Assembly (NCBI GenBank): GCA_016197285.1
Contig: JACPWD010000022.1
Span: 182,502-246,501, forward strand
Reading direction: 5' to 3'
Source: Deltaproteobacteria bacterium
GTDB taxonomy: Bacteria > Desulfobacterota > Binatia > Bin18
Length of the DNA stretch: 64,000 bases
Shown: one piece after another, positions 6,878 to 62,237 of the stretch
How the letters are laid out: every line of letters begins with the position of its first letter
Position numbering within the stretch: position 1 is the stretch's first letter
Program-made: the position numbers and the translations under genes
The notes under the pieces: generated by a model
What the model saw: the letters and a program-made list of their open reading frames with translations, nothing else
What the model was told of the DNA's origin: nothing
Database searches by the model: none

Positions 6878-8362
6878 TTATCCGCGCGGGAACGCCAGCC
6901 CGCTCGATGAGGACACGTGCTTCCGCTTCGCTGAAGAAAGAATGTTCATGTTTTCCCTATACTTTGCCACGGTACGGCGCGCAATGGTCACATCTCCGCG
7001 AGACAGGGTCTTGGCGATTTCCTCGTCGCTCAGCGGGTGGGCAGAGTCTTCGCTCTCGATCATCTCGCGGATGCGCTCTTTGACGCTCTCCGCCGACACA
7101 TCCGGTCCGTGCCGTCCTTTCAAACCGGTGGTGAAGAATTTTTTCAGGGGGTAAATACCGCGCGGCGTCGCAATATATTTGCCGGCAATCGCCCGACTCA
7201 CCGTGGACTCATGGACGCCAACCTCTTCGGCCACGTCGCGTAAGACGAGCGGGCGCATGTGAGACACGCCATAGGTCAGAAAATCTTGCTGAAACTTCAC
7301 CAGACTCTGCGCGACGAGCAAGAGCGTCCGCTGACGTTGATGAATACTCTTGATGAGCCACGCGGCGGAGCGCAATTTTTCCTGGACGTACTCTTTGGCC
7401 TCGCCTTCTTCGGCCAACAGGCGACGATAGGAAGCGCTCACCTTCAACCGCGGCAGTCCTTCTTCATTAAGCGTGACGACCCAGTCCTCGCCCACCTTTT
7501 GGACATACACATCCTCGGTCACATAGCGGACGTCGCCTTCGCCAAAATCGCGCCCAGGCTTCGGCTCGAGCGAAGAGATCAATTTGACGGCGTGGGTCAC
7601 TTCTTCGATAGTGACCCCTAAATCTTTGGCAAGGCGGTCGAACCGGCGGATTTCCAACGCCGGCAAATGGTCCCGAATAATGCGTCCGGCGACGGCAAGA
7701 ATCGGGTCGTTCAGGGTAGGATTCTCTAACCCTTGATGACGGAGTTGCAACAGCAGGCACTCCCGCAAGTCGCGCGCACCCACCCCGGACGGATCGCACT
7801 CTTGGATAATCCCCAATACGCGCAAGACCTCTTCGTCGCTCGCGCCGACATTCGCGGCAATCTCTTCGATCGGAGCTTGTAGATAGCCATCGACATCGAG
7901 ATTGCCGATAACCACGGCGGCAATCCGCACCTCTTCTTCCGTCAGAGCGCGGAACCGGAGTTGCCACGCGAGATGTTCCGTCAGGGATTCTGTCCGATTC
8001 GGTTGATTTTCGATGAGATTTTGCCGGTCTTCGTCGGCATCGTCGCTTCCCCACGCCGGGAGCGACGGGGCTCCATCGTTATATGTCTCGAGATAGGAGC
8101 GCCAATCGATGTCTTCAGAAGTGGCAACCTTCTCCGCGGCTTCAGGTGGAGGCGGCTCCTCGCTCATCACCCCGGCCTCGGCAAGAGAGACTTCTTCTTC
8201 TCCCTGTTCGACCGTGAGCACTGGATTCTCCGCCAGCTCTTCGTTGATTAGGGTATCGAGTTCGCCGCGCGGGAGTTGGAGAATCTTGATAGCCTGACGC
8301 AGTTGGGGCGTCATCACTAATCTCTGCGTCAATTTTTGCTGGAGCCTAATATCCAAAGCCAT
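6878..8362 (-). CDS. rpoN: RNA polymerase sigma-54 factor
   Basis: 494 aa; N-terminal Gln/Leu-rich activator-interacting region (LTQRLVMTPQLRQAIKILQLP); C-terminal RpoN box (ARRTVAKYRE). Confidence 0.95.
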   Translation of the reverse strand: MALDIRLQQKLTQRLVMTPQLRQAIKILQLPRGELDTLINEELAENPVLTVEQGEEEVSLAEAGVMSEEPPPPEAAEKVATSEDIDWRSYLETYNDGAPSLPAWGSDDADEDRQNLIENQPNRTESLTEHLAWQLRFRALTEEEVRIAAVVIGNLDVDGYLQAPIEEIAANVGASDEEVLRVLGIIQECDPSGVGARDLRECLLLQLRHQGLENPTLNDPILAVAGRIIRDHLPALEIRRFDRLAKDLGVTIEEVTHAVKLISSLEPKPGRDFGEGDVRYVTEDVYVQKVGEDWVVTLNEEGLPRLKVSASYRRLLAEEGEAKEYVQEKLRSAAWLIKSIHQRQRTLLLVAQSLVKFQQDFLTYGVSHMRPLVLRDVAEEVGVHESTVSRAIAGKYIATPRGIYPLKKFFTTGLKGRHGPDVSAESVKERIREMIESEDSAHPLSDEEIAKTLSRGDVTIARRTVAKYRENMNILSSAKRKHVSSSSGLAFPRG

Positions 8363-13730: not shown

Positions 13731-14015
13731 GCTCGAAAAAATCCTTTACTGTTGTGAATGGGGATTCGGGCTACGGAACTCGACTATAGGGCAGAAGCCT
13801 GGCAAGGTCAAATTCGCGCAGAAAGCCGCGAAAAATCAGGGGGATAAAACAGGCTCTGATCAGGTGGCACCTTTGTGGGTCCTTGCCTCAACCGTGCTCG
13901 ACAGAAATTTTGACCGTGCCGAGTTTGGGTGGAGACGCTAAATGAAGAAGATGTTGCCGTTGGGGTGAAAAGAGAGCGGCAGGTATACTTCGCGAGTCAT
14001 ACCCTGCGCTTTTTC

Positions 14016-14105
14016 TGTCATTCTGAACGAAGCAGAGCGCAGTGAAGAATCTTTTTGCTGAGCCACGAGTGGAGCGAGATTCCTCGCTCCGTTCGGAATG
14101 ACAAC
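14016..14105. repeat. MITE/REP-like imperfect palindromic repeat, family 1 copy A
   Basis: TGTCATTCTGAACG...GAAGAATC ... GAGATTCCTCG...CGGAATGACA. It is one of six dispersed copies and sits in the kdsB upstream region at the island boundary. Confidence 0.7.
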
Positions 14106-14136
14106 ATCGGGCGATAATGGTTATGCGGATAGGCCC

Positions 14137-14532
14137 TTAGTACCGCCTAGAGATCCGTTCGCCTCCATGTTGTTTCATCTCGAACTGGTCTTCAAATAGG
14201 TGGGTAACGCCCTTCCAAGCTTGGTGTCTCTCTTCCCTTTTAAGGAATTTTTTCAAAGCCCGTAACCTTGTTGCAGGCTTGACTCCAAACTTAATCATGC
14301 CTTGGTGAGTACAAAACGGAATATAGTTCTCAGTAAATCTCTTATCGCTTGTTATCAAGATTGCCCCAGCGTCAGTAGACTTCTGAATCACGGTTGGGTC
14401 TTCAGCGTCCTGCCTTAGCCCAGCATCACGAAAGGAAACCACTTTGATCTTTCTCAGAGTGGAAAGATATTCTGAGATCTCGGCTGATAGGCAAGCATCC
14501 ACCAAGAAAGTCAGTTTCCTTTTGGAACTCAT
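14137..14532 (-). CDS. DUF5615-family (PIN-like, Mut7-C related) putative toxin
   Basis: 131 aa; LTFLVDACLS...ISEYL N-terminus resembles DUF5615 proteins that pair with DUF433; low-GC region; 3 nt from the DUF433 ORF. Confidence 0.5.
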   Translation of the reverse strand: MSSKRKLTFLVDACLSAEISEYLSTLRKIKVVSFRDAGLRQDAEDPTVIQKSTDAGAILITSDKRFTENYIPFCTHQGMIKFGVKPATRLRALKKFLKREERHQAWKGVTHLFEDQFEMKQHGGERISRRY

Positions 14533-14535
14533 GCC

Positions 14536-14811
14536 TTATCTTTCCATGACATACCCGGCAAACTGAAGCGCCGCGTGTAATCCTTCTTGGCCAATCGCTG
14601 GAAAGGATTTCAGTATCTTCTTATGCGAGTACCCTGCTTCGACTAACTCAAGAATGGCATAGACAGGAACTCTTGTCTCGGCGACGCAGGGTGCTCCTCC
14701 ATAGATTTTCCTGTTCATAACGATTTTATTATCGACCTTCTCTGCTGCTTGACGAAAAGATTCCTCTATGGAGTCACGAAAATGATCCGCAGAGGACATG
14801 TCAGCATCCAT
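14536..14811 (-). CDS. DUF433-domain protein (putative antitoxin partner). The ORF may extend to 14967.
   Basis: C-terminal IYGGAPCVAETRVPVYAILELVEAGYSHKKILKSFP matches the DUF433 core. Domain-sized protein starts at ATG 14811. Track ORF (143 aa) starts at 14967. Confidence 0.55.
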   Translation of the reverse strand: MDADMSSADHFRDSIEESFRQAAEKVDNKIVMNRKIYGGAPCVAETRVPVYAILELVEAGYSHKKILKSFPAIGQEGLHAALQFAGYVMER

Positions 14812-14963
14812 GCTAGATGCAGGCCATTCTAAGTTAGTGCGCAACGAGCACAAGGACGTTAAGTCTCTGATGATGGAGAATTTCTCCCCGGAGCGCCTAA
14901 CGGGTCGCCTTGCTGATAAGAAGAATCTCTCTTGTTCTGTACTTTTTCGCTTCTGTGCCGCAA

Positions 14964-15671
14964 TCATTTTCTTCTCCTTATCGGTCTTACTGTAGAAAGT
15001 GCAACTTCACTAAGGACAACGACATCATCCTCAACAGTCATCAGTTTCTGCGCGGTAGTCTTTGCTTGTCTATTTAGCCGAACAAAAATTGACTTTCTCA
15101 ATACCCGCTGTTCGGCAAAGCTTACGCCTACTTTATTTTCTTGAAGATTGAGGAAGGTTCCCTCTGCCTGAGCGCCTTCAAAAATTTCGTTCTCTGTGGT
15201 GTTCAATGTCCCAGATAAAAGCAAGGGGAGAGAGAACGCCGAACGATAAGAGTTCCTTGGAAATGCGAAAAATGCCATCTCTTTTAGCTCAATGCTTGCG
15301 TCTGGAGAGATGAATTTATGCAGCCATTGAAATATATCTTCCGCAAATGGCGGCTGTTCCCTGTCCGATTTGATCGCCGTCGTTGGCTCAAGGGCAACAT
15401 GGAAATGCAGCTTGGCCGCTTTGGTTAATTTTTCACGATCCCAGTGAATCCCGACACGTGCTCGATAATCGACTTTTTCACTGGACCGACCACAGGATAC
15501 GGCAAGCGGTTGATTTTTCTTGAACGCTTTTACCAGGTCTTCAAAAGGGAGAACTTCGAGAAATAGATCCTGTAGAAAGTCTTTCTTAGCGATCACTATG
15601 TTCGCTTCAAAGCCTCCACAGTGATGGGACTTGAGTTTTAATGCCTCGCGTTCTTTCCGGGGTGTAGTCAT
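14964..15671 (-). CDS. Hypothetical protein, 235 aa, no recognisable domain; in low-GC island
   Basis: Clean ORF with balanced amino-acid composition, unlike GC-rich antisense ORFs. AT-richer than flanks. Adjacent to the DUF433/DUF5615 pair. Confidence 0.5.
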   Translation of the reverse strand: MTTPRKEREALKLKSHHCGGFEANIVIAKKDFLQDLFLEVLPFEDLVKAFKKNQPLAVSCGRSSEKVDYRARVGIHWDREKLTKAAKLHFHVALEPTTAIKSDREQPPFAEDIFQWLHKFISPDASIELKEMAFFAFPRNSYRSAFSLPLLLSGTLNTTENEIFEGAQAEGTFLNLQENKVGVSFAEQRVLRKSIFVRLNRQAKTTAQKLMTVEDDVVVLSEVALSTVRPIRRRK

Positions 15672-15849
15672 GAAAATTCATCCAGGGAACTAATATGGCA
15701 CGAACGACGCCAACTAAACAACCTTCATCACCGCTCGAAATCAAAATATAAAGGCAGGGTTAGCGGTGTTTCCCCTCGCCGTTGTCGCTTCTCTTCTATA
15801 AGGATTTAGGAGACCTATCGTTCCCCAATTCGGCGGCTTCGTCCATGGC

Positions 15850-16269
15850 TCACACCTCCACCGGGGTCGGCTCGCCCTCCCCCCACACGCGGGCGAGGGT
15901 GGCCTGTATCTTCTTCTCGAAGCGGGCGATCAGTTCACGGTTGGCGGCGACCAACGCTTGCTCCGCTTCAATCTCCTCGACGATTTCCTCGATGAGGCGC
16001 TTGGGGTTCGGCACGGTCTTTTGGTAGCCAGTGATGGAGGTAGGCGTCGGAAACGCCGTGATGACGTAAGGGTTGCCGCGTTCGAGATCCCAGAAGTAAT
16101 GCAGGTTGCCGTTGGAGAGGATGACGAAGCGGCAGTTCTGGGACTTGGCGTATCTACGCACCTGCTCCTTGCCGACGAGCGGGCTTCTGTCTTCGGCTTT
16201 GGCTTCGAGGACGATGAACGGGAAGCCTTTTTCATTGCGGCTTCCTTCTCGGGCATTCCGATTCCTGTC
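15850..16269 (-). pseudogene. Remnant of a type I restriction enzyme R-subunit N-terminal (HsdR_N-like) domain protein
   Basis: Stop-to-stop frame encodes ...GFPFIVLEAKAEDRSPLVGKEQVRRYAKSQNCRFVILSNGNLHYFWDLERGNPYVI, the HsdR_N restriction-enzyme core motif. No start codon precedes the domain. The only start is a GTG in mid-domain. Confidence 0.5.
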
Positions 16270-16303: not shown

Positions 16304-17173
16304 TCAAGCTGTACTCGGTTGCGCTTCGGCAGGACGGCACTGCACCTGGAGGGCGACCTGCAATGAACTGAAGACACCGGCACCACGAAAGCTCCCCGTA
16401 ACAGGCGCGGCCAAGCGCGGAATTCTCCCAGCAGCGATCACGACATGCTGATCGGCAACTGTGAGCCCACTGGTCGGATCGTACCCGCGCCAGCCGCCGC
16501 CAGGGAGATAGACTTCCGCCCAGGCATGCATGCTCGCGGCGAATACGCTTTTTCCTCCCGTGTACCCGCTGACGAACCGCGCGGCGAGCCCGACAACACG
16601 ACACGATTCGATAAACAGGACGGCAAGGTCGCGGCACGCACCACGCTTTTGCGCCAGCGTCGCCGCTGCCGACTGCGGGTCCCCGTGTTCACGCGTGACA
16701 TAGGTCGTCCGCTCATGAATGCGAGTGTTCAATTGCGCCAGAAACGCCAAGGGTTCCTGTTTCACGTCCGCGGCAATGGAGCGGGCAAATTGATAAAGAG
16801 AGGCATCGTGCTCGCTCACGATGCGATACGACTCCAGGGTCGGACGGATCTCGGTCGCATAGGACACCGGAAGCATCGCTGCGGCGGGGTCGGTAATAAT
16901 GAAGTCGAATGGATTGTCGCGCACGGTCTCTACCGTGAGACGACTCGCGATCTGCAAACGTCGCGTCGCGTCGGCAAACCACACCGACACCACATCGTTC
17001 CCCTCGGCATCTCTTCCCTCCGCCATTCCGGCAGGAAGCGGGTCGATGTTCAGCGCGATCTGTCGAATGCGCTGCGTGCCATCGCTCCGCGGTCGCAAGC
17101 GCAGTTCGTGGGGATTGAGCGCGACAAGGCCACTATAGTTATAAGTCATCGTATGGGAAATCTCGAAAATCAT
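16304..17173 (-). CDS. Transglutaminase-like protein with bacterial transglutaminase N-terminal domain
   Basis: 289 aa; Cys-protease-like core GACRDLAVLFIESCRVVGLAARFVSGY; last gene of the ATP-grasp/alpha-E/Anbu operon. Confidence 0.8.
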   Translation of the reverse strand: MIFEISHTMTYNYSGLVALNPHELRLRPRSDGTQRIRQIALNIDPLPAGMAEGRDAEGNDVVSVWFADATRRLQIASRLTVETVRDNPFDFIITDPAAAMLPVSYATEIRPTLESYRIVSEHDASLYQFARSIAADVKQEPLAFLAQLNTRIHERTTYVTREHGDPQSAAATLAQKRGACRDLAVLFIESCRVVGLAARFVSGYTGGKSVFAASMHAWAEVYLPGGGWRGYDPTSGLTVADQHVVIAAGRIPRLAAPVTGSFRGAGVFSSLQVALQVQCRPAEAQPSTA

Positions 17174-17197
17174 GCGTCCTGTCCGCCGTCTTCCGGC

Positions 17198-17947
17198 TTA
17201 CACCAACACCACGCCGTTGCGCGTATCGAGTCCAGTAAAGACGCGCTCCAGGCTGGTAGCCGGGAGTTCGTGTACGGAACGTCGGAGTTGTTCTTGCCAC
17301 ACTGTGGACATCTCCAGCAGATCGTTCTTCTCGTAGCGATGTTCGACCAGCCGGTGGGAATCTTTGACGTACAAAATGACATCGATGGGGAAATCGACAT
17401 CCGCCGCGCTAATCCGGGTCGAATCGAAGGCCAGGCAACCGACTTTGAGCGCAAACCGCATCGAGTCGTGATGCTGCAGCGTGCGATCGAGAATGGGTTT
17501 GCCATAACCCGAGGCGCCGATGATGTGGTACGGCGTGCCTTGGCCGATTTCCACCCAATTGCCCTGAGGATAGATGAGATAGAGCTTGTGACTGCGATCA
17601 TTGGCGAACTGCCCACCAATGAGGGTATGGATATTGAAATGCAATCCGCCCTCTTCCAACGCTTCTTTATCCTCCTTAGCGACGCGACGGAGTTGCCCGG
17701 CAAACGCATTCACGGCTTTGAAAAGCCGGTCGAACTCCTGACCTTCATCGGCCATGCGTTCCTCGAAGTACGTTAGTGTCTTGTCCCGCAGGGAGCGCAG
17801 GCCGGAGGTCATTACGAACATGGTCTGCCCCTCGTTCGTATAGGTGCTGACTTTGCGCGCGGAGATACATTCGCTGCCGGACAGCACCCGCGTGTCGGCA
17901 ATCCCCACTAGCCCATCTTGTAAATTGATGCCCAGACAAAAAGTCAC
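17198..17947 (-). CDS. Anbu (ancestral beta-subunit) proteasome-like peptidase
   Basis: Proteasome beta-subunit-like fold. A GTG at 17947 gives the N-terminus M-TFCLGINLQDGLVGIADTRV, placing a Thr directly after the initiator as in Anbu. Track ORF starts 9 nt upstream at another GTG. Confidence 0.7.
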   Translation of the reverse strand: MTFCLGINLQDGLVGIADTRVLSGSECISARKVSTYTNEGQTMFVMTSGLRSLRDKTLTYFEERMADEGQEFDRLFKAVNAFAGQLRRVAKEDKEALEEGGLHFNIHTLIGGQFANDRSHKLYLIYPQGNWVEIGQGTPYHIIGASGYGKPILDRTLQHHDSMRFALKVGCLAFDSTRISAADVDFPIDVILYVKDSHRLVEHRYEKNDLLEMSTVWQEQLRRSVHELPATSLERVFTGLDTRNGVVLV

Positions 17948-18013
17948 CAGTTCCACTCCTTCGGTAAGTACCCCACATTATCGATGCTCTAGTACTTCGT
18001 CCATGAACAGATG

Positions 18014-18118
18014 AGGGATTGTCATTCCGAGCCGGAACGCAGTGCAGGCGAGGAATCTCGTGTCGATACTGCCAGCGTGAGATTTCTCGTCGCTCCGCTC
18101 CTCGAAATGACATCCCTC
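18014..18118. repeat. MITE/REP-like repeat family 1 copy B
   Basis: GTCATTCCGAGCCGGAACGCAGTGCAGGCGAGGAATCTCG ... GAGATTTCTCGTCGC...CGAAATGACA; sits in the alpha-E/Anbu intergenic gap; generates spurious ORF 17745..18113. Confidence 0.7.
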
Positions 18119-18142
18119 GAAATTCCCCGGACAGACTACTAG

Positions 18143-19144
18143 CTATCCGCCACTAACAGACATTTGGCTGCTTTTGCCCAACGTAACGGCTCCACCGATC
18201 GGCTGCAAGGTAAAGAACGTTGTAAAGATGTGTTCCCCGACGGTATTGAGTTTGGTTTGCAAGGCGTCCACGAATTCGTGCAACCCCTCGCCGATCACGT
18301 CTTCCACCCGCGCGTAGGCTAATTCCGCGCGCAACTGGCCAAGATGTTGCTCGGCGGAATTACAGAAGGCCCCGACCGGCGAGCCGGCAATAGCGTGGAG
18401 GGATTCGTCGGCTTTGATCAGACAATAGTGAGAAGAGCGGGGGAATTCCCGATCGAGGAGCAGGAAATCCACGATATTATCGGGCGTGAGGTGGTGATGG
18501 CGTTTGCGGTACATCTCGAAGGCACTGGCCGAGCGCAGCACCGCCGCCCATTGGATGTCGTCGAACGGCGTGCCCACATCGTCTGGCGAAGGCAGCAGAA
18601 TGAAGTATTTCACGTCCAGGATACGCGAGGTTTTGTCGGCACGCTCCAATAACCGACCCAACCGACAGAAGTGCCACCCCTCGCCATGCGACATGGTGGC
18701 GTTGGCGAGCCCTTCAAAGAGATGGCTGGCCATTTTGACTTCGCGAAAGAACTCGTAGGGCGCGTCCGCAACCCGTTCGCTCGCCCCAGGATCGGTGACC
18801 ATGAGGTAAAAGGTATTCACCTGCTCCCACATCTCCGACGAGATGATTTCTCGCACCGAACGGGCACTTTCGCGCGCGGCCCGCAGGCACGAAACGATGG
18901 CGTTGGGATTCTCTTTATCGAAGGTCAGGAACTGCACCACGTTTTCGCGCGTGGCGATGCCATGGCGTTCGGCAAAGAGGTCCTCATCGCCGGAAGTCAC
19001 CACCAGCGGATGCCATTGTTCGGTGGCGTCGGCCGGCAGGTCCAGCAGCAATTGCAAATTGACATCGACGAACCGCGCCACATTCTCCGCACGCTCGATA
19101 TAACGACTCATCCAGTACAGACTGTCAGCCACTCGGGAAAGCAT
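18143..19144 (-). CDS. Alpha-E domain protein (DUF403)
   Basis: 333 aa; N-terminus MLSRVADSLYWMSRYIERAEN is the alpha-E signature; follows the circularly permuted ATP-grasp gene. Confidence 0.8.
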   Translation of the reverse strand: MLSRVADSLYWMSRYIERAENVARFVDVNLQLLLDLPADATEQWHPLVVTSGDEDLFAERHGIATRENVVQFLTFDKENPNAIVSCLRAARESARSVREIISSEMWEQVNTFYLMVTDPGASERVADAPYEFFREVKMASHLFEGLANATMSHGEGWHFCRLGRLLERADKTSRILDVKYFILLPSPDDVGTPFDDIQWAAVLRSASAFEMYRKRHHHLTPDNIVDFLLLDREFPRSSHYCLIKADESLHAIAGSPVGAFCNSAEQHLGQLRAELAYARVEDVIGEGLHEFVDALQTKLNTVGEHIFTTFFTLQPIGGAVTLGKSSQMSVSGG

Positions 19145-19156
19145 CGATTCCGCCCC

Positions 19157-20593
19157 CTACTCGAACAGCACCCACGTATCTTTACTGCCACCACCCTGGG
19201 ACGAGTTCACCACCAGGGACCCTTTCTTCAAGGCCACCCGCGTGAGCCCGCCCGGCAAGACAAAAATATCTTCTCCATAGAGCACGTACGGGCGGAGATC
19301 GACATGCCGCCCCTCGAAATGATCGCCAATAATCACCGGTACGCGCGAAAGCGAGAGGGTCGGTTGAGCGATGTAATTGCGAGGATTGGCCTTAATCAAC
19401 CGCGCGAATTGCTCGCGCTGCATCGACGAAGAATGTGGACCGACGAGCATCCCATACCCACCGGACTCATTGGCGGCTTTGACGACCAGCTTGTCCAGAT
19501 TGTCGAGCACGTAGACTTGCTCTTTCTCGTCCGCGCACACATAGGTAGGCACGTTGGGAATCGCACACTCTTCCCCCAGATAATACTTCACGATCTTGGG
19601 CACATAGGCATACACCACCTTATCGTCGGCGATGCCGGTGCCGGGGGCATTAGCGAGCGCGACGCGACCGGCTTTGTACACCTCCAACAAGCCGGGAACA
19701 CCCAGCGTGGAATCCGGGCGAAAGACGAGGGGATCGAGAAAATCGTCATCAATGCGACGATAGAGCACATCGACCCGCTGCAATCCCTTGGTCGTGTGCA
19801 TTTGGAGCAGCCCATCGGCAACAAGCAGGTCGCGCCCCTCCACCAACTCCACTCCCATTTGTTGCGCCAGAAACGAGTGCTCGAAGTAGGCAGAGTTGTA
19901 AATCCCCGGCGTCAGCACGGCCACGGTCGGGGTCTGAGTGTAATCCGGCGCGAGATACTGCAACATCCCCAGCAAATGGCTGGGGTAATCGTCCACCGGT
20001 CGTACGCGCAATTCGCCGAACACCTGGGGAAAGGTCCGCTTCATAATCTGGCGGTTTTCCAGCACATAGGACACGCCGGAGGGACAGCGCAGGTTATCCT
20101 CCAGGACGTACACCTGCCCGTCACCGTCGCGCACCAGATCGGTGCCGGTAATGTGGCACCAGATGCCGCGTGGGGGCGTGAGCCCGATGCATGCGGCACG
20201 GAACGAACGCGCGGAGGCGATAATCTCTTCGGGAACGACCTTATCTTTGAGGATTTTCTGCTGGTGGTAAATGTCGTCGATGAACAGGTTGAGCGCGACC
20301 ACGCGCTGTTTCAAGCCGCGTTCGAGCCGCTCCCATTCCGCCGACTCGACGATGCGCGGAATGATATCGAACGGAAAGATCCGTTCCGTGCCCGCGCTGT
20401 CGCCGTAGACGTTGAAGGTGATCCCCATGTGCAGGAGCGCCCGCTCCGCTGCCTGTTGGCGCTGATGCAGTTCGCCGTCGGAGAGCGAATCGATGCGCTC
20501 TTGCAGCAGGACCGCTCCAGGGCGAGGACGGCCATCGGGTTGGAACATTTCGTCGGAAAACCCCTCGGTATTGTAGCCGTGAAAGGTGATCAT
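19157..20593 (-). CDS. Circularly permuted ATP-grasp protein (type 2; DUF404/DUF407)
   Basis: Sequence typical of cpATP-grasp amidoligases paired with alpha-E. Track ORF starts at 20674. ATG at 20593 (MITFHGYN...) has GGAG upstream. Confidence 0.8.
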
Positions 20594-20869
20594 GGTCCGG
20601 GTGCTCCGCGTCTCTAAACATCGAACGTGGGCTAAAGCAGCATGTAGCGTGCCAGAGAGATGCCGATTCGGCAACCGAAGCGAAACGGCGGGAACGGTTC
20701 AAGTTCGCTAGATTCTGTAGGAGAGAAGTCAGTCCTGCCTGGACTTCTGGTCGCAGTGGTGCTCAGGTTTTAGGCAGCCGTGCCGCATTCATATGCGACG
20801 GCGCCACCTCCGCCAACGCCGCCGTCGGCAGCAAAAGAGGTAGGCTAGGTCATGACCCAGACTCTGAGA

Positions 20870-21370
20870 CTACCCGCCCAATGCTTTACCGAAAGCTTGC
20901 ATGAAGGCTTTTTCTAAGGTCCGGTTCGAGGGCAACGAGCGTTTCGTCATCGCTCCGGCAGCGAGGTCCTCCGCCGTCCAGGCGCGAATTTCGGCAGTCG
21001 CGCCGATACGCACCCGGTCCGGCTTATCGCCAAGGCTCACAACATAACGATACTCCGCACCGACCCAAGAAACCGCGCGGTCGGCTTCCGACAGCGTCGC
21101 CACGTCGGCGAGGGTGTTCACGTCGAGCGCAACGAACGTAGTCGTCACCTGCCCCTGCTCGAACGACGCTTGTTCCGCCGTCAACCCGCGTGCAGCCACT
21201 GCCCGCAACACCGCCTCCCACAGATCCCGACGCATGTTGTCATCCGGTGTCTCTACTGTTGCACGTTCCCCTAGCGGCAGAGCAACCAGGTCAGCCGCCA
21301 GGGCGCGCTGAAGCAGGCCCTGGGGGAAAAATGCCAGCATCAGATACAGAGCGAGACGTCGTACGAACAT
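20870..21370 (-). CDS. Hypothetical secreted protein
   Basis: Signal-peptide-like MFVRRLALYLMLAFFPQGLLQRALA from internal ATG 21370. Track start 21430. No recognisable domain. Confidence 0.45.
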   Translation of the reverse strand: MFVRRLALYLMLAFFPQGLLQRALAADLVALPLGERATVETPDDNMRRDLWEAVLRAVAARGLTAEQASFEQGQVTTTFVALDVNTLADVATLSEADRAVSWVGAEYRYVVSLGDKPDRVRIGATAEIRAWTAEDLAAGAMTKRSLPSNRTLEKAFMQAFGKALGG

Positions 21371-21469
21371 GAGATTGTCGGTTGTGGCGGGAAGATGGCG
21401 GCCCGAGGGCGAGGACGCTCCCGGGCGCACCGTGCGAGGACACGCCCGGCCTTGTAGGTGTGGAGATGA

Positions 21470-21928
21470 TTATTGATCCTGTATCTGTGTCGCCGTCGTA
21501 GGGGTCTTCTGATTGAAGTTATCGTAACATTGCAAGACCAAGGCATAGGACGTACTACCGCCGAATGCGTTCCCCACCGTGGCGTACCCCTGCATCGCGC
21601 CGATCGCGGGATCGCGAAACAAACTGGTCCAGTCAACAGCACCAAGCCCACCACCCAACACGAACGCCGCTACGGATTTCCCTTTGGTGGGTCCAGGGGC
21701 GAGCCCGGTGAGGGTGAGGGTAACGTAGTCGGCATCGGCATCGTTGTCGCGAATCTCTCCGTAGATGGAGCGCGTCGGACCGGTACACTTGACCTTATAG
21801 ACATCGAGACAAGCCAGATGCTCACAACCAACGCTCCCGAAAAAATCCACCGCCCACACGGAGGCCACGTTTCCGCTCACGAGTGTCAACGCCATTCCCC
21901 AAGCCGCCAGCAATTTCTTCATGGACAT
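21470..21928 (-). CDS. Hypothetical small secreted Cys-containing protein
   Basis: 152 aa; N-terminal signal peptide MSMKKLLAAWGMALTLVSGNVASVWA; mature part Gly/Thr-rich with 5 Cys; no homology recognised. Confidence 0.5.
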   Translation of the reverse strand: MSMKKLLAAWGMALTLVSGNVASVWAVDFFGSVGCEHLACLDVYKVKCTGPTRSIYGEIRDNDADADYVTLTLTGLAPGPTKGKSVAAFVLGGGLGAVDWTSLFRDPAIGAMQGYATVGNAFGGSTSYALVLQCYDNFNQKTPTTATQIQDQ

Positions 21929-22254: not shown

Positions 22255-23857
22255 CTACGGCCCTGCCACAAGGTCGCGAGCAAGTACAGTGCGTTTTCCC
22301 CCCCGCCTCCTAGCGGGTGACACTTTTAGACGACCACTCTGAAGGGACACAAGACGCTCCGCCACTCCCGCGAGCGCCTCTAGATCATCGCGGTTGTACT
22401 CAAGAAGGTCCATTTTGAGTACGACACGCCTGTTTTTGTCACGGGAGAGTCGGTACTCCTGGTACAAGGATAGGGCGACAAGGCCATCTTGTATGCGGCT
22501 TACTTTCGATATAGCGAAGTAACTTGCCACTTGGCCAAGCTTATAGCGATTTTCACTTCCGTGCGACCCGGGGGCGCGGGCGTCCCGCCCGCAGGAAAAG
22601 CGACCGAGACGGTCGCGCTCCCAGGAAAAAAGGTCGCATCCATTCGCAAACCGCTATAAGTTGAGGGATCGGGAACCGTACCGCGTTCCTAACATATTGA
22701 AACAGATCTAAATGTTTAGAGGTAACTGCATCCAACTCGTGACCGAGCTTTAGGCGTTGCGCTGCGTTTCGCAATTGAGGCATGTCCGCACCATTGCCAC
22801 TCCAAGTCACAACAGGTAGCGAGGGATTCGCCATCGAAATCTCGGCTAGGCGCTTGAGATTTCGTTTCTCCTGAATTGACGTCTCTGCCCACAGCGCGAA
22901 GTATTCGCGGCCATTCGGTCTCACCAAACAGATCCCAACGAGCCAAATAAGCCCGCTGGGGACGTACTCAAGGTCTAGGGCCAGAAATCCGCCATCCAAC
23001 CGGAGAGGATTCCCGAACAGCACCGGGGACGAGGCAGAATAGCTCGCGGCATGGTGTTTCCAGTGGTCAACTTGAGCGGGCGAGACAAAACATTTTCGAT
23101 CACGGAGCTTCTCGACAAGAGAGGAAGACTCGACCGAGAGAAGTTCATCATAATCGCTAATACCGATATCTTCGAAATGCCGCGCGTAGACTCGCCCCAT
23201 CCCCCAGAGCCGCGTAAGGTCTTTCTTCGCACGCGTGGCGCGGTCGATTTCCTCGCGCATAATCCCACTACAAACGGTGCATCCACAAATACGCGGCGTG
23301 ACGCCGAGATCGCGCGCCTTCCGGATGTCTTGTAACAAGTCGAGTACTTGGTCGAGGCGGTGCGATGGGATCTCAACCTCCACTTGTTCGTCAACTCCAT
23401 CACGACGCAAGAGAAGGTAACCGCGTGGAGGAACCTTTCTTTTCCTGAGGGGTTCGAGGAGCATCCAGTAAAATGCCAACTCCAATTCGTCAGAGCGCTG
23501 GACGGCTTTGTGAGATTTTATCTCTATCGGGATCAACGCGCCTTGAGCCGTGTCTATCGCGTCGGGCTTCCCGTAGATCTGAAGCTTCGCATTCTCGAAA
23601 AGTGGAACGCCGAAGAGGCGGATTGACTCTTCAGCGAATACCCTGGGAAGGTCATTGGGTTCAATTGAGAGAGGAATTGCTTTTGCCTCTACGACGCTAT
23701 GGAATTCGACGCCTTCTTGGATCAAACGGATCTGCATTTCAGTGACCGTCTCCTCAAATGCTATGAGGCCGCGATCAAGCAGATAGAATGCGTACGGGCA
23801 GCGCAGATATCTCGTTAGGTCGGTTTTGCTAACCCAGATTGGGGGGCGGGTCGGCAT
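22255..23857 (-). pseudogene. TM0106-family RecB-like nuclease (Cas4-like PD-(D/E)XK + HhH + RNase H-like), disrupted by frameshift/insert
   Basis: ORF 22553..23857 has a Cas4-like nuclease with CGCTVCSG cysteine cluster, HhH (ISDYDELL) and an RNase H-like segment. The conserved C-terminal IPxLW...YNxxDxxAL motif continues in another frame, ORF 22255..22530 (IQDGLVALSLYQEYRL...LLEYNRDDLEAL). The junction 22553..22640 contains two GC hairpins. Confidence 0.55.
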
Positions 23858-35854: not shown

Positions 35855-37831
35855 TTGATCGCAGGTGCCGCTGCCATTAGCGCCGGGGTGATCGCACCTT
35901 GCTATTTGCAGCCGGAGTGGATGGCTGCCGCTGGCGCGGCGAGTGCTGTTGGCGGCATCGGCGGCAATCTCGTGTCGCAGTTTCTCGCCCGGTTCTTTAG
36001 CCGCCAGGAAACTGACCCCCGACGCCCGGACCTCAACCACGACCTGCTCAAGCTGGTCAGCAACGCCGTGGTGCGTGAGGTCGCCGCCTGCGAACGGGAA
36101 GAAGGACCGACCCTGTCTTCGGCGGAGCACGCCTGTCTGCTGGTGTTCGGAGACAACGTCGGCGCGGCCTTCGAACAACTCGCGCACAGCGGCCAGTTCC
36201 CTAACCTCGCCCCGCTGGACGTGAAAGACGTGAAACAGTTACTCGCAGACTCGGCCCGTAGCGAATCGTTGCCGCGGGTGGGCACAGTGGACGAGTGGCG
36301 GCAAATCGTGAGCCAGCTCAACCTGGACAGTAAGGCTGGACTCGAAGGTTCAACCGAGACCTTACTTGCGCAGCGCCTGCATGCGCGGTTGTGGGACGCC
36401 ATCCACAGCGAGTTGAAGCAAGACTTTGCTGGCGAAGGCCGCGCCTACGCCGCTTTGCACCTGAGCTTCATGGGCGAGGTGCTGGCCACGCTGAACACGT
36501 TGGTGCGACTGCCGCACGAACAAACCCAGCTTACGCAAGAATTGCTGAACGAATTACAGGCGCACAAAACCCGCGCAGCCGACCCGAAAGTCCACGACCT
36601 GCTGACCTTACTGACGCAAGATGAAGCCCAGCGCGCCGCAGAATTTCGTCAGCGATTCGATCATCTTGATACCCAATGGGGGCTCGCGCTCGAAAAACTG
36701 ACGAAGATTGAGGTCACGGTCACACAGATCGACACCAAGCTTGACAACCTTGCTGACATACTGTTCTCTCGCCTGTCGGAGAAAGACCAAGAGATCGGCG
36801 CACTCAAAGCCCAACTCCAAGCCACCTTGCAGCGCGCCGCGCAAGCCCAAGGCAAAGGCGACACCGCCGCTGGCAATGCTTTGGAGCAAATCCGCAAAGA
36901 CGGCGACCCGAAAAAGTTGGGCGAGTTCTTGGATCGGCAATTAGACGTAGAACAGCCTCGGCTAGCGGAACAACAGACCAACGTGATCCAGCTTTTACGC
37001 GAACGCGCGGCGGTGGCCTACGTCACCGGTGAGATCGCTCGCGCCGAGCAGTGCCTGCAACAGATTCTTTCCTTGCTGCCCGAGGACCTCGACGCTATTA
37101 ACCGGCTCGGCCAGGTCTACAAACTGCACGGCGACCTCGACGCGGCAGAGCGTCAGTACCGCCGGGTGCTCGATCTGGCACCAAGACATGCAAGAACCAT
37201 CGGCAACTTAGGACTAATTGCCGAGACTCGGGGACAGCTCAACGAGGCCAAGCACCTACACAAAGAAGCGTTGGTGATCGACCAGCAACTTGGGAACTTA
37301 GAAGGCCAAGCCAGGCATTTGGGCAACCTGGGGCTCATTGCCCGAACCCGGGGGCAGCTCGACGAGGCTGAACGCTTGCACCGCGAATCCTTAGCCATCT
37401 TCCAGCAGTTGGGTCACTTAGAGTACCAAGCCAATCAGTTAGGCAACCTGGGGCTCATTGCCCGAACCCGGGGGCAGCTCGACGAGGCTGAACGCTTGCA
37501 CCGCGAGGCCTTAGCCATCGACCAGCAACTTAGGAACTTAGAGGGCCAAGCCAGTGACTTGGGCAACCTGGGAGCGATTGCCTTGACCCGAGGGCAGTTG
37601 GACGAGGCCGAGATCTTGCACCGCGAGGCCTTGGCCATCAACCAACAGTTGGGCCGCTTAAAGGGCCAAGCTAATCAGTTGGGCAACCTGGGGATCATTG
37701 CCAAGCAACGAGGCAATGGCGCGGAGGCGCAGCGGTCATGGACCGAAGCGCGGGATTTGTTTGCACAGGTGGGGATGAAGCCACAACTGGAGCAAGTGCA
37801 GGGGTGGTTGGATGGATTGCCGGGGGAGTGA
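35855..37831 (+). CDS. TPR-repeat protein with ~350-aa N-terminal domain of unknown function
   Basis: 658 aa; C-terminal half has 40-aa TPR-like units (GNLGLIAxTRGQLDEAExLHREALxIxQQLGxLEGQA). Track start is a TTG at 35855. First ATG at 35921. Confidence 0.7.
   Translation: MIAGAAAISAGVIAPCYLQPEWMAAAGAASAVGGIGGNLVSQFLARFFSRQETDPRRPDLNHDLLKLVSNAVVREVAACEREEGPTLSSAEHACLLVFGDNVGAAFEQLAHSGQFPNLAPLDVKDVKQLLADSARSESLPRVGTVDEWRQIVSQLNLDSKAGLEGSTETLLAQRLHARLWDAIHSELKQDFAGEGRAYAALHLSFMGEVLATLNTLVRLPHEQTQLTQELLNELQAHKTRAADPKVHDLLTLLTQDEAQRAAEFRQRFDHLDTQWGLALEKLTKIEVTVTQIDTKLDNLADILFSRLSEKDQEIGALKAQLQATLQRAAQAQGKGDTAAGNALEQIRKDGDPKKLGEFLDRQLDVEQPRLAEQQTNVIQLLRERAAVAYVTGEIARAEQCLQQILSLLPEDLDAINRLGQVYKLHGDLDAAERQYRRVLDLAPRHARTIGNLGLIAETRGQLNEAKHLHKEALVIDQQLGNLEGQARHLGNLGLIARTRGQLDEAERLHRESLAIFQQLGHLEYQANQLGNLGLIARTRGQLDEAERLHREALAIDQQLRNLEGQASDLGNLGAIALTRGQLDEAEILHREALAINQQLGRLKGQANQLGNLGIIAKQRGNGAEAQRSWTEARDLFAQVGMKPQLEQVQGWLDGLPGE
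37198..37720 (+). repeat. Tandem 120-bp repeats (4-5 units) inside the TPR gene
   Basis: Near-identical 120-nt units beginning ~37198, 37318, 37438, 37558, 37678 (e.g. GGCAACCTGGGGCTCATTGCCCGAACCCGGGGGCAGCTCGACGAGGCTGAACGCTTGCACCGCGA twice verbatim). Confidence 0.8.
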
Positions 37832-38362
37832 AGACTCAGGAAGAAAAGGCAAAAATGAGGACGAAAAGAGCAGATCCCATTTGTCGTCCCCCGAGCGGCG
37901 CATCGCGCCTGCATGATGGTAGCCGTGGGTTTCAACCCACGGCGGAGGGAATCCCACAAAGGCAGAGGCAATACGAGATTCCTCACCGTCACTTCGTTCT
38001 GGTTCGGAATGACAACCCCTACAGGCAAACTGACAGACAGTGGGTTTCAACCCACGGCGCATGGATACCACAAGACATCTGCCGCTACATCGTCCGGCCT
38101 TGAAAGACCGGCCTACCGTCGTGCGCCTCGCTGCGGCGCTGGCCAGCCCGCTGCGCGGAAGATCGTAGCCCACGACGTGAGTCGTGGGGAACATGAGGGA
38201 AGGGCAACGGGGAACAGGCAACAGCGAAAAGGATTGACAAAAAGAGCAGGCCCCGTTCGTCATTCCGCCAGCGGCGTGTCGCGCCGGAAACTGCAACGGC
38301 TGTCATCGGCTAGCGCCGGTAATGTGGCGCGCCCCCGCCCATGGTGGCGCACCACGTTTCAC
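37832..38362. repeat. Repeat-fragment-rich noncoding region (two CCGTGGGTTTCAACCCACGG hairpins plus a partial family-1 arm)
   Basis: GTGGGTTTCAACCCACGGCG occurs at ~37924 and ~38039. Partial family-1 arm GAGATTCCTCACCGTCACTTCGTTCTGGTTCGGAATGACAAC lies at 37975..38016. No convincing ORF. Confidence 0.6.
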
Positions 38363-60292: not shown

Positions 60293-60328
60293 AGGCACCC
60301 TACTACTTCGTCCACCGGAATAAGAAGG

Positions 60329-60446
60329 GTGTCATTCCGAGCCGAAATGCCATGGAGGCGAGGAATCTCGTGTTGTCTCTGCCAGCTTGAGATTCCTCGT
60401 CGCGGAGTTTACCCCGAGCGAAGTCGAGGGGCCTTTCGCAATGACA
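60329..60446. repeat. MITE/REP-like repeat family 1 copy E
   Basis: GTCATTCCGAGCCGAAATGCCATGGAGGCGAGGAATCTCGTG ... GAGATTCCTCGTCGCGGAGTTTACCCCGAGCGAAGTCGAGGGG ... CAATGACAG; between tatD and metG. Confidence 0.7.
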
Positions 60447-61999: not shown

Positions 62000-62080
62000 A
62001 TGTCCTCGAAGAGGTCTCAAACAGTTTACGGGAGTTGAACCTTGCACTAACAAATCAGGGGGCCACGGACGAAGAGGGGT

Positions 62081-62176
62081 TGTCATTCCGAGCCGCAATG
62101 CAATGGAGGCGAGGAATCTCGTGCTGGTCCTGCTCTCGTGAGATTCTTCGTCGCTGCGCTCCTCAGAATGACATTC
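62081..62176. repeat. MITE/REP-like repeat family 1 copy F
   Basis: TGTCATTCCGAGCCGCAATGCAATGGAGGCGAGGAATCTCGTG ... GAGATTCTTCGTCGCTGCGCTCCTCAGAATGACA; between metG and holB. Confidence 0.7.
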
Positions 62177-62237
62177 CTCAGCCTCACAAGCATCATATGG
62201 ACAAACTACTAGTCGCCCGTGGCACTCGCTCCTTCCC

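Follow-up and report, generated by a model that had tools for sequence, protein, structure and literature searches.

An Intact Anbu-2-like Operon with a Probable Sigma-54 Promoter and a Recently Inserted Palindromic Repeat in a Binatia Genome

Introduction

What does the proteasome-like protein Anbu do in the company of the enzymes encoded beside it, and does a repeat lodged among their genes break the operon in two? Both questions are raised by a stretch of 64,000 nucleotides (hereafter the window) from a Deltaproteobacteria bacterium of the Binatia (assembly GCA_016197285.1, contig JACPWD010000022.1, positions 182,502 to 246,501), in which genes for a circularly permuted ATP-grasp (cpATP-grasp) ligase, an Alpha-E domain protein, Anbu and a transglutaminase (TGase)-like enzyme lie together, with a palindromic repeat in the gap between the second and the third. 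The Anbu operon is a long-standing orphan that is widespread and old enough to enter models of proteasome origin. An earlier note, made from the sequence of the window, had recognized the neighbourhood as a known one whose role is undefined, in agreement with the literature (PMC3235984; PMC5666114; PMC6376114; PMC8665760).

The locus is an intact copy of this already-described four-gene cluster and is ordinary in kind. With a probability of about 0.6 for the reading as a whole, we take it to be a chromosomal, Anbu-2-like operon that is driven by sigma-54, serves to tag and process proteins or peptides, and has received a recent repeat insertion that leaves it a single transcript. To earlier descriptions the analysis adds the Anbu-2-like assignment, a swapped gene order, a probable conserved sigma-54 promoter and the empty-site proof of a recent insertion; with these, the question of Anbu function becomes only slightly more tractable.

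The Four-Gene Cluster and Its Proteins

Four intact, co-directional open reading frames (ORFs) span 16304-20593 on the minus strand and encode, from 5' to 3', a cpATP-grasp type 2 ligase (19157..20593; ATG start; 478 amino acids, aa), an Alpha-E domain protein (18143..19144; 333 aa), Anbu, a proteasome beta-like N-terminal nucleophile hydrolase of Anbu-2-like appearance (17198..17947; GTG start; 249 aa), and a TGase-like cysteine peptidase or amidase (16304..17173; 289 aa). The spacers measure 12 nt between ligase and Alpha-E, 195 nt between Alpha-E and Anbu, and 24 nt between Anbu and TGase. Anbu is accordingly found on one strand with a cpATP-grasp, an Alpha-E and a transglutaminase-like gene, the combination by which the Anbu operon is recognized. 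The earlier note had claimed a complete cluster with gaps of 12-200 nt, and its coordinates, strand, order and identities hold in the ORF map and in the Pfam and PDB matches; only the middle gap, given there as 196 nt, has to be corrected. The G+C content of the operon genes (0.56-0.61) resembles that of the whole window (0.58), so there is no sign of a foreign island. Two plus-strand ORFs (16445..17776 and 18671..20617), which lack family support, were set aside as shadow ORFs of G+C-rich coding DNA, and a minus-strand ORF at 17745..18113 was dismissed as a high-GC shadow ORF.

The ligase matches the Pfam family CP_ATPgrasp_2 from end to end (4.5e-168, 559 bits, model positions 1-374 of 374), and its closest solved relative, PDB entry 3N6X, deposited as a putative glutathionylspermidine synthase, aligns across residues 14-476 (2e-168). 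An identical 478-aa gene call on Logan contig L081 shares the ATG start at 20593, and homologues align from residue 1-2. A TTG at 20674 was considered as an alternative start and rejected, since it would cross the promoter motif described below, and both the homologues and the independent gene call begin at the ATG. The Alpha-E protein likewise covers its Pfam model completely (2.4e-108, 363 bits, positions 1-294 of 294), and its ER motifs, E17-R18 and E167-R168, are invariant in an alignment of 31 sequences. A phmmer search of the PDB returned no solved homologue for it, and its AlphaFold2 (AF2) model, which has a predicted local distance difference test score (pLDDT) of 65, found no Foldseek match in the PDB (best E 0.55, template modelling score, TM, at most 0.21), a null that is uninformative about the Alpha-E fold given the low confidence of the model. 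The TGase-like protein combines Bact_transglu_N (1e-22, 81 bits) with Transglut_core (1.1e-21, 78 bits) and matches PDB entry 3ISR at 3.3e-8; its triad Cys180-His216-Asp232 lies in the motifs GACRD, HAWAEVY and YDPT, which align with the equivalent motifs of 3ISR. In the closest public genome, represented by the metagenome-assembled genome (MAG) contig SYOC01000421 (L001), the DNA is 84-86% identical, Anbu 94% and the TGase-like ortholog 86%.

Profile searches had been put forward in the earlier note as a check on these identities, and they bear out three of the four proteins, which pass the Pfam cut-offs. Anbu itself narrowly misses that of Proteasome, PF00227, scoring 22.1 bits where 22.4 are required (E = 1.3e-4), as is typical of its clade, where most relatives lack a precomputed PF00227 match. 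Because there is no separate Pfam 'Anbu' model, the identification is made from PDB sequence matches and predicted fold. In the phmmer search of the PDB, the only entries matched were those of Anbu (5LOY at 6.8e-36, then 5NYJ, 5NYF, 5NYW and 5LOX; E 7e-36 to 3e-26), with alignments beginning at residue 1-2. The AF2 model (pLDDT 83) places Anbu chains in all of the top 31 Foldseek positions (TM 0.70-0.91; root-mean-square deviation 1.5-3.8 A), 20S beta subunits ranking after them with a TMq of about 0.6, and it carries the C-terminal helical extension typical of Anbu (helices 207-226 and 230-243). NCBIfam gave no match for any of the four proteins. PADLOC also gave none, and thus no link to known defence systems; a tRNA search found none.

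The Anbu Start and Its Nucleophile

In the described arrangement, Anbu has no propeptide and exposes Thr1 upon removal of the initiator Met (PMC5666114); indeed, Thr1 of Pa-Anbu reacts with epoxomicin (PMC5666114). The earlier note had placed the start at GTG 17947, with Thr as the first residue after the initiator, and this placement is upheld from several sides. A Shine-Dalgarno sequence, AAGGAG (17956-17961, minus strand), can be read 8 nt before the GTG, which is followed by ACT (Thr) to give a product beginning M-T-F-C-L-G-I. The homologous gene starts at the same position in 67 related genome loci, mostly with ATG-ACN, and of 81 aligned clade members, 79 have Thr behind the initiator and read initiator-Thr-Phe-Cys-Leu-Gly, the other two having Ser; nearly all loci checked place an initiator codon right before this residue. 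The catalytic Asp, Lys and oxyanion Gly (D17, K31 and G48) are present in 81/81, the numbering being shifted relative to Lys32/33 because of deletions in the clade. GTG 17956, which would give the longest ORF, was rejected, as it overlaps the AAGGAG and the homologues begin at 17947. From these comparisons, GTG 17947 is the real predicted start, with Thr1 directly behind the initiator.

A departure from the usual start codons was seen in loci of the Fibrobacteria type (L046, L059, L063, L070 and L079). Here ATC precedes the Thr1 codon of Anbu, no in-frame ATG, GTG or TTG lies upstream, and most of the loci have a purine-rich, Shine-Dalgarno-like stretch just ahead. The pattern suggests that ATC is used as a non-canonical initiator that preserves the initiator-Thr arrangement.

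Subtype and Substrate Pocket

Two subtypes of Anbu were distinguished by Fuchs et al. in 2017, with S1 pockets composed of T20-F30-T48-L52-S55 for Anbu-1 of P. aeruginosa and of I20-A29-R46-R50-T53 for Anbu-2 of C. hutchinsonii (PMC5666114). The pocket of the window protein reads V20-A29-T46-R50-R53, of which R50 is found in 81/81, R53 in 78/81 and A29 in 78/81 clade members. Compared with the Anbu-1 proteins of a Klebsiella and an Azospirillum plasmid, the protein has two one-residue deletions, which yield the Anbu-2 numbering. The genomes with its closest relatives are those of Planctomycetota, Verrucomicrobiota/Kiritimatiellia, Desulfovibrio-type bacteria, Binatia, Bryobacterales, Chloroflexota and Fibrobacteria. 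By residue pattern, indels and phyletic neighbours, set against the published pocket residues of CHU_3460 only, the window protein looks like Anbu-2.

The two arginines make the pocket basic, which suggests that this Anbu would cut after acidic residues, that is, with an acidic P1. Work on Anbu-1 has relied on hydrophobic substrates and inhibitors, and far fewer tests have been made with acidic substrates, to which Arg50/Arg53 point.

Gene Order among Relatives

The order ligase-AlphaE-Anbu-TGase is the usual one in the clade of the window, with the last two genes swapped relative to the classical proteobacterial order. Across the 80 nearest loci, Alpha-E, Anbu and TGase follow one another in 48, and 46 of these also have the ligase, which is missing from the other two because the contig ends first. 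A further 13 loci show ligase-AlphaE-Anbu with no TGase directly behind, nine have a solitary Anbu, two have ligase-AlphaE-TGase-Anbu, and eight have other or partly truncated arrangements. The canonical order, ligase-AlphaE-TGase-Anbu, is that of the annotated Klebsiella plasmid operon (NZ_CP084831) and, by locus-tag numbering, of P. putida (ligase PP_2688, Anbu PP_2685; PMC8050072). A search of a plasmid collection, which served as the canonical-order comparison, returned only Anbu-1-type matches with less than 35% identity.

Solitary Anbu genes, encoding proteins 67-72% identical to that of the window, were seen in L003-L008, L013, L015 and L017, with no cpATP-grasp, Alpha-E or TGase gene directly adjoining on the same strand. 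The sources are mostly Kiritimatiellia/Verrucomicrobia MAGs; L013 is a Binatia MAG, and L008 is unclassified.

A Probable Sigma-54 Promoter

A candidate sigma-54 (-24/-12) promoter, TGGCACGCTACATGCT, with the GG-N10-GC signature, lies at 20639..20654 on the minus strand and ends 45 nt upstream of the cpATP-grasp ATG. It fits 11 of the 12 consensus positions, and across the 64 kb of the window nothing else matches TGGCAC-N5-WTGCW, the expected number of matches being 0.14. In an alignment of eight upstream regions, TGGCA..TGCT is the only invariant block, at about 41-45 nt from the ATG in five and about 65 nt in three; TGGCA(C/T)...TGCT stands at ~41-45 nt in L086, L088, L090/L091 and L002, and at ~65 nt in three loci of Binatia (L011, L012 and L016). 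More broadly, a motif scoring at least 9/12 occurs within 150 nt upstream in 18/56 related loci compared with 4% of control segments, an enrichment of about 8-fold, and one scoring at least 10/12 in 7/56 loci compared with 0.7% of controls. The gene for sigma-54 itself, rpoN, recognized by its Sigma54_AID, CBD and DBD domains, lies at 6878..8362 on the minus strand, about 12 kb from the operon. Its neighbours are kdsA-like, pyrG and kdsB-like genes, which mark a chromosomal housekeeping region of a Gram-negative-type bacterium.

Taken together, these patterns make a conserved sigma-54 promoter ahead of the ligase gene probable, and transcription of all four genes from it, 45 nt upstream of the first, is a well-supported prediction. 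A promoter of this kind would imply that the operon is switched on by an enhancer-binding activator. In analogy to Pseudomonas, the inducing signal is likely to be nitrogen or nutrient limitation: in P. putida, nitrogen limitation strongly induces the operon (PMC3235984, note added in proof), expression of PP_2685/PP_2688, which have been used as nitrogen-limitation-responsive genes, is higher on nitrate than on ammonium (PMC8050072), and COG3484 has been placed in the proteobacterial sigma-54 regulon (PMC12316311). A related locus (L084, 931-6610) carries, in this order, an ammonium transporter gene (amt) and a gene for an NtrC-type sigma-54 activator directly ahead of genes for a cpATP-grasp ligase and an Alpha-E protein 85% identical to that of the window; its TGase gene is on the opposite strand, and it has no Anbu. 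The presence of such a promoter in a non-proteobacterial lineage would extend the nitrogen/starvation link beyond Pseudomonas and suggests conditions for induction.

A Recent Insertion between Alpha-E and Anbu

Directly after the Alpha-E stop codon TAG (18145-18143) begins a palindromic intergenic repeat of ~150 nt (17989..18142, no strand assigned), an imperfect palindrome with nested inverted repeats. The window holds four copies in total, the others lying at 62063-62179 (81% identity), at 60300-60403 (80%) and, as a partial copy in inverted orientation, at 37950-38020 (77%). These three are also intergenic, beside tatD, metG, holB and a gene for a tetratricopeptide repeat (TPR) protein. On the transcribed strand, the RNA of the repeat folds into one long hairpin (-59.6 kcal/mol, z = -3.2).

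That the repeat is a recent, lineage-specific insertion follows from the empty sites of relatives as far as their sequences can tell. L001 (94% Anbu identity) and L087 (92% Alpha-E identity) have a 51-nt Alpha-E/Anbu spacer without the repeat, and the blastn alignment of L001 with the window breaks at this point, 64 nt facing 202 nt, or about 138 nt extra in the window. The block AAGGAGTGGAAC(C/T)GGTGAC ahead of Anbu is conserved in both relatives. Contig L081, which comes from short reads of the same organism and is identical in sequence, stops inside the element, in the way that assemblies tend to break at repeats. The insertion goes with a slight difference at the Alpha-E C-terminus (SVSGG* against AISDGQA*), a poorly conserved tail modelled at low confidence.

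The earlier note had called the element a miniature inverted-repeat transposable element (MITE). The name is borne out in part: the element has terminal inverted repeats, is small and non-coding, occurs in several copies and is missing from the corresponding site of a relative; an unambiguous target-site duplication did not appear. The flanks read TAG|CTAG...CTAG|AGC, and the target cannot be delimited from the relative, whose intergenic DNA has diverged too far. A search within the window identified no partner transposase.

Elements of this build are common elsewhere. With a loose two-anchor pattern, the core pair GTCATTCCGAGC-N10-20-GCGAGGAATCTCG was found in metagenome contigs from many sources, at least 120 in number, a stricter pattern having returned zero contigs; the repeat therefore belongs to a very widespread palindromic type. 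In contigs L092-L171, GTCATTCCGAGC-(variable stem-loop)-GCGAGGAATCTCG is often paired with its own reverse complement, and the variable stem seems to keep its pairing through compensatory changes. The GTCATTCCGAGC/GCGAGGAATCTCG module may thus be a very widespread repeat or structured element lacking from Rfam, which gave no match in the window at gathering thresholds and none in the gap at E <= 1.

Does the Repeat Divide the Operon?

The earlier note had further suggested that the element might separate Anbu and TGase transcriptionally from the ligase genes. Such a split, into a ligase and Alpha-E unit and an Anbu and TGase unit by termination, a new promoter or both, would find its grounds in the unusual gap. 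The median Alpha-E/Anbu spacer across 67 related loci is -4, with the ATGA overlap occurring in 28, and the 195-nt gap of the window exceeds that of 62, the five longer spacers including two that hold another gene. The hairpin is very stable (-59.6 to -70 kcal/mol), and Anbu has a Shine-Dalgarno sequence of its own. The signals by which a division would operate are missing, however. A terminator scan of the minus strand found no T-run after the hairpin and no terminator in the gap, and neither a sigma-70-like promoter nor a sigma-54-like motif was found on that strand of the gap. Nor is the Shine-Dalgarno sequence a consequence of the insertion, because the empty-site relatives already have the 51-nt spacer with the same sequence. 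The suggestion is not borne out by these scans, and we consider a split distinctly unlikely.

Most likely, then, the operon stays a single predicted transcript, and the most that the repeat would do is to shift how stable, or how strongly expressed, one half is relative to the other. It lengthens the spacer from 51 to 195 nt and would add a stable hairpin to the polycistronic mRNA, and by analogy to hairpins of the repetitive extragenic palindromic (REP) type within operons, the likeliest effects are a loss of close coupling and an altered stability or processing of the halves. Two natural alleles, one with a 150-nt hairpin separating the ligase half from the protease half and one lacking it, offer a usable handle on whether the stoichiometry of the halves matters.

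Proposed Function and Its Rivals

In the tag-and-process model that we favour, the ATP-grasp enzyme, together with Alpha-E as what family knowledge suggests to be its obligatory partner, would use ATP to ligate an amine by way of an acyl-phosphate and so attach an amino acid or a peptide, as a tag, to a protein or peptide. The TGase-like enzyme, with its Cys-His-Asp triad, and the Thr1 hydrolase Anbu would then process, remove or degrade the tagged product. Several published observations and predictions are compatible with these steps. Phosphate release from ATP has been measured for the ATP-grasp protein of the operon in the Yersinia ortholog (PMC6376114). A tagging and peptidase function is cited as a prediction in PMC3495828 and PMC6376114, and in the former the TGase-like enzyme is predicted to reverse peptide tags (PMC3495828). 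The multi-site ring of Anbu and its reactivity towards epoxomicin have led to its being considered a processive protease (PMC5666114).

A number of points weigh against the favoured reading. None of the Anbu proteins has a known substrate, and in 2021 it was still written that 'no function is known' (PMC8665760), for which reason the model, drawn from family knowledge, deserves moderate confidence at best. Neither a tag nor proteolytic activity has been demonstrated for any Anbu, the purified protein is inactive on standard proteasome substrates, and no complex between Anbu and the remaining operon proteins has been detected (PMC6376114; PMC5666114). At the locus itself, two of the five pocket residues differ from the C. 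hutchinsonii Anbu-2 reference, and the sigma-54 motif is missing upstream of many more distant relatives, such as most Bryobacterales loci. The 64 kb window also contains no sigma-54 activator, as judged by the GAFTGA and Walker-A signatures of bacterial enhancer-binding proteins in any frame; the activator may be encoded elsewhere in the genome.

Two other functions would make use of the same four proteins. When nitrogen is limiting, Anbu and the TGase-like enzyme could scavenge it without any tagging, by degrading proteins or peptides or by deamidating glutamine, with ATP-grasp and Alpha-E acting on a small molecule. The sigma-54 motif, the amt-ntrC neighbourhood of L084 and the induction under nitrogen limitation in Pseudomonas (PMC3235984; PMC8050072) all suit this idea, which is also among the hypotheses listed in PMC6376114, yet it leaves unexplained why ligase and Alpha-E are so tightly, and often through translational coupling, linked to Anbu, and Anbu shows no bulk peptidase activity in vitro (PMC6376114); we regard it as unlikely. 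Alternatively, the ATP-grasp enzyme could make a small peptide or amide non-ribosomally, for which Anbu and TGase would serve as maturation peptidases. Biosynthesis was the original comparative-genomics reading, as cited in PMC5666114; it accords with the annotation of 3N6X as a putative glutathionylspermidine synthase and with the occurrence of cpATP-grasp/Alpha-E/TGase triads that lack Anbu. Polypeptide substrates are nevertheless favoured by the large, open, multi-site Anbu rings, their proteasome-like substrate channel and the reaction with proteasome inhibitors (PMC5666114), and the window has no precursor-peptide gene, exporter or other biosynthetic gene beside the operon, so that a biosynthetic role appears highly improbable.

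A more specific version of the tag-and-process model can be imagined, although we would regard it as a long shot. Under sigma-54 control during starvation, the ligase and Alpha-E would add acidic tags of the Glu/Asp type, the arginine-lined Anbu-2 pocket would read and cut them, the TGase-like enzyme would erase them, and the repeat would act at the RNA level to decouple the amount of writer from that of reader and eraser. If this were true, the tag-and-degrade system would be a bacterial analogue of polyglutamylation-dependent proteolysis.

Flanking Features of the Window

Downstream of the operon, a minus-strand ORF of 103 aa without family match (15850-16161) includes a segment of 73 nt (15876-15948) with 93% identity to L001 sequence downstream of the TGase gene there, and it may be a gene remnant conserved in synteny. 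The region at 14000-15700, just downstream of the operon, has a G+C content of 0.45-0.47 compared with 0.58 and carries a DUF433/DUF5615-PIN-like pair, probably a toxin-antitoxin system, and a 235-aa ORF without family match; the stretch resembles a foreign insertion. Immediately upstream of the operon, at 20870-21928 (minus strand), are two small ORFs (186 and 152 aa) with signal-peptide-like N-termini and no convincing family match. They are followed at 22553-23857 (minus strand) by the gene for a 434-aa protein that joins a Cas4-like PD-(D/E)XK nuclease domain to an RNase_H_2 domain; no CRISPR array was noticed nearby. Farther away, at 37202-37681, a 240-nt unit occurs three times at a spacing of 120 nt (77-78% identity) within the TPR-repeat protein gene 35855..37831.

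Comparison with Known Systems

The inserted element shares with palindromic repeats of the REP/MITE type a length of ~150 nt, non-coding character, nested inverted repeats, several intergenic copies and empty sites in close relatives; it differs in having neither a clear target-site duplication nor an identified partner transposase.

Triads of cpATP-grasp, Alpha-E and transglutaminase that lack Anbu draw on the same ligase, Alpha-E and TGase families but have no proteasome-like gene. They include a form with fused cpATP-grasp-Alpha-E and a DUF2126 transglutaminase, which adjoins the Anbu cluster in L013, L014 and L090, whereas the window has no second triad beside its operon. In L090 (9109-15861), as in L013 and L014, this second system is convergent with the Anbu cluster and consists of three proteins: one of 843 aa in which cpATP-grasp and Alpha-E are fused, a Bact_transglu_N/Transglut_core/DUF2126 protein of 1110 aa, and a small TGase.

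The Anbu-1 operon of Pseudomonas, Yersinia and Klebsiella (COG2308-COG2307-COG1305-COG3484; PA1733, PP_2685-2688) is built from the same four families in one co-directional cluster. It likewise has Thr1 directly after the initiator with no propeptide, no AAA+ partner, and a link to sigma-54 and nitrogen limitation. There, however, TGase precedes Anbu, whereas in the window Anbu precedes TGase; the two Anbu proteins are only about 30-35% identical; the S1 pocket is amphiphilic in Anbu-1 (T20-F30-T48-L52-S55) and basic in the window (R50, R53; PMC5666114); and the palindromic repeat between Alpha-E and Anbu is a feature of the window.

With Anbu-2 as described for Cytophaga hutchinsonii CHU_3460, the window protein has in common the pocket numbering 29, 46, 50 and 53, an identical A29 and R50, and a hydrophobic residue at position 20, and some of its relatives belong to groups that were named as bearers of Anbu-2 (Planctomycetota, Verrucomicrobiota/Kiritimatiellia and Desulfovibrio-type bacteria). 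It departs from CHU_3460 in having T46 for R46 and R53 for T53, so that the second arginine occupies another position of the pocket, and its clade adds groups absent from the list of the 2017 paper, namely Binatia, Bryobacterales (Acidobacteriota), Chloroflexota and Fibrobacteria. Overall, the locus is a known, widely distributed system in the form typical of its clade.

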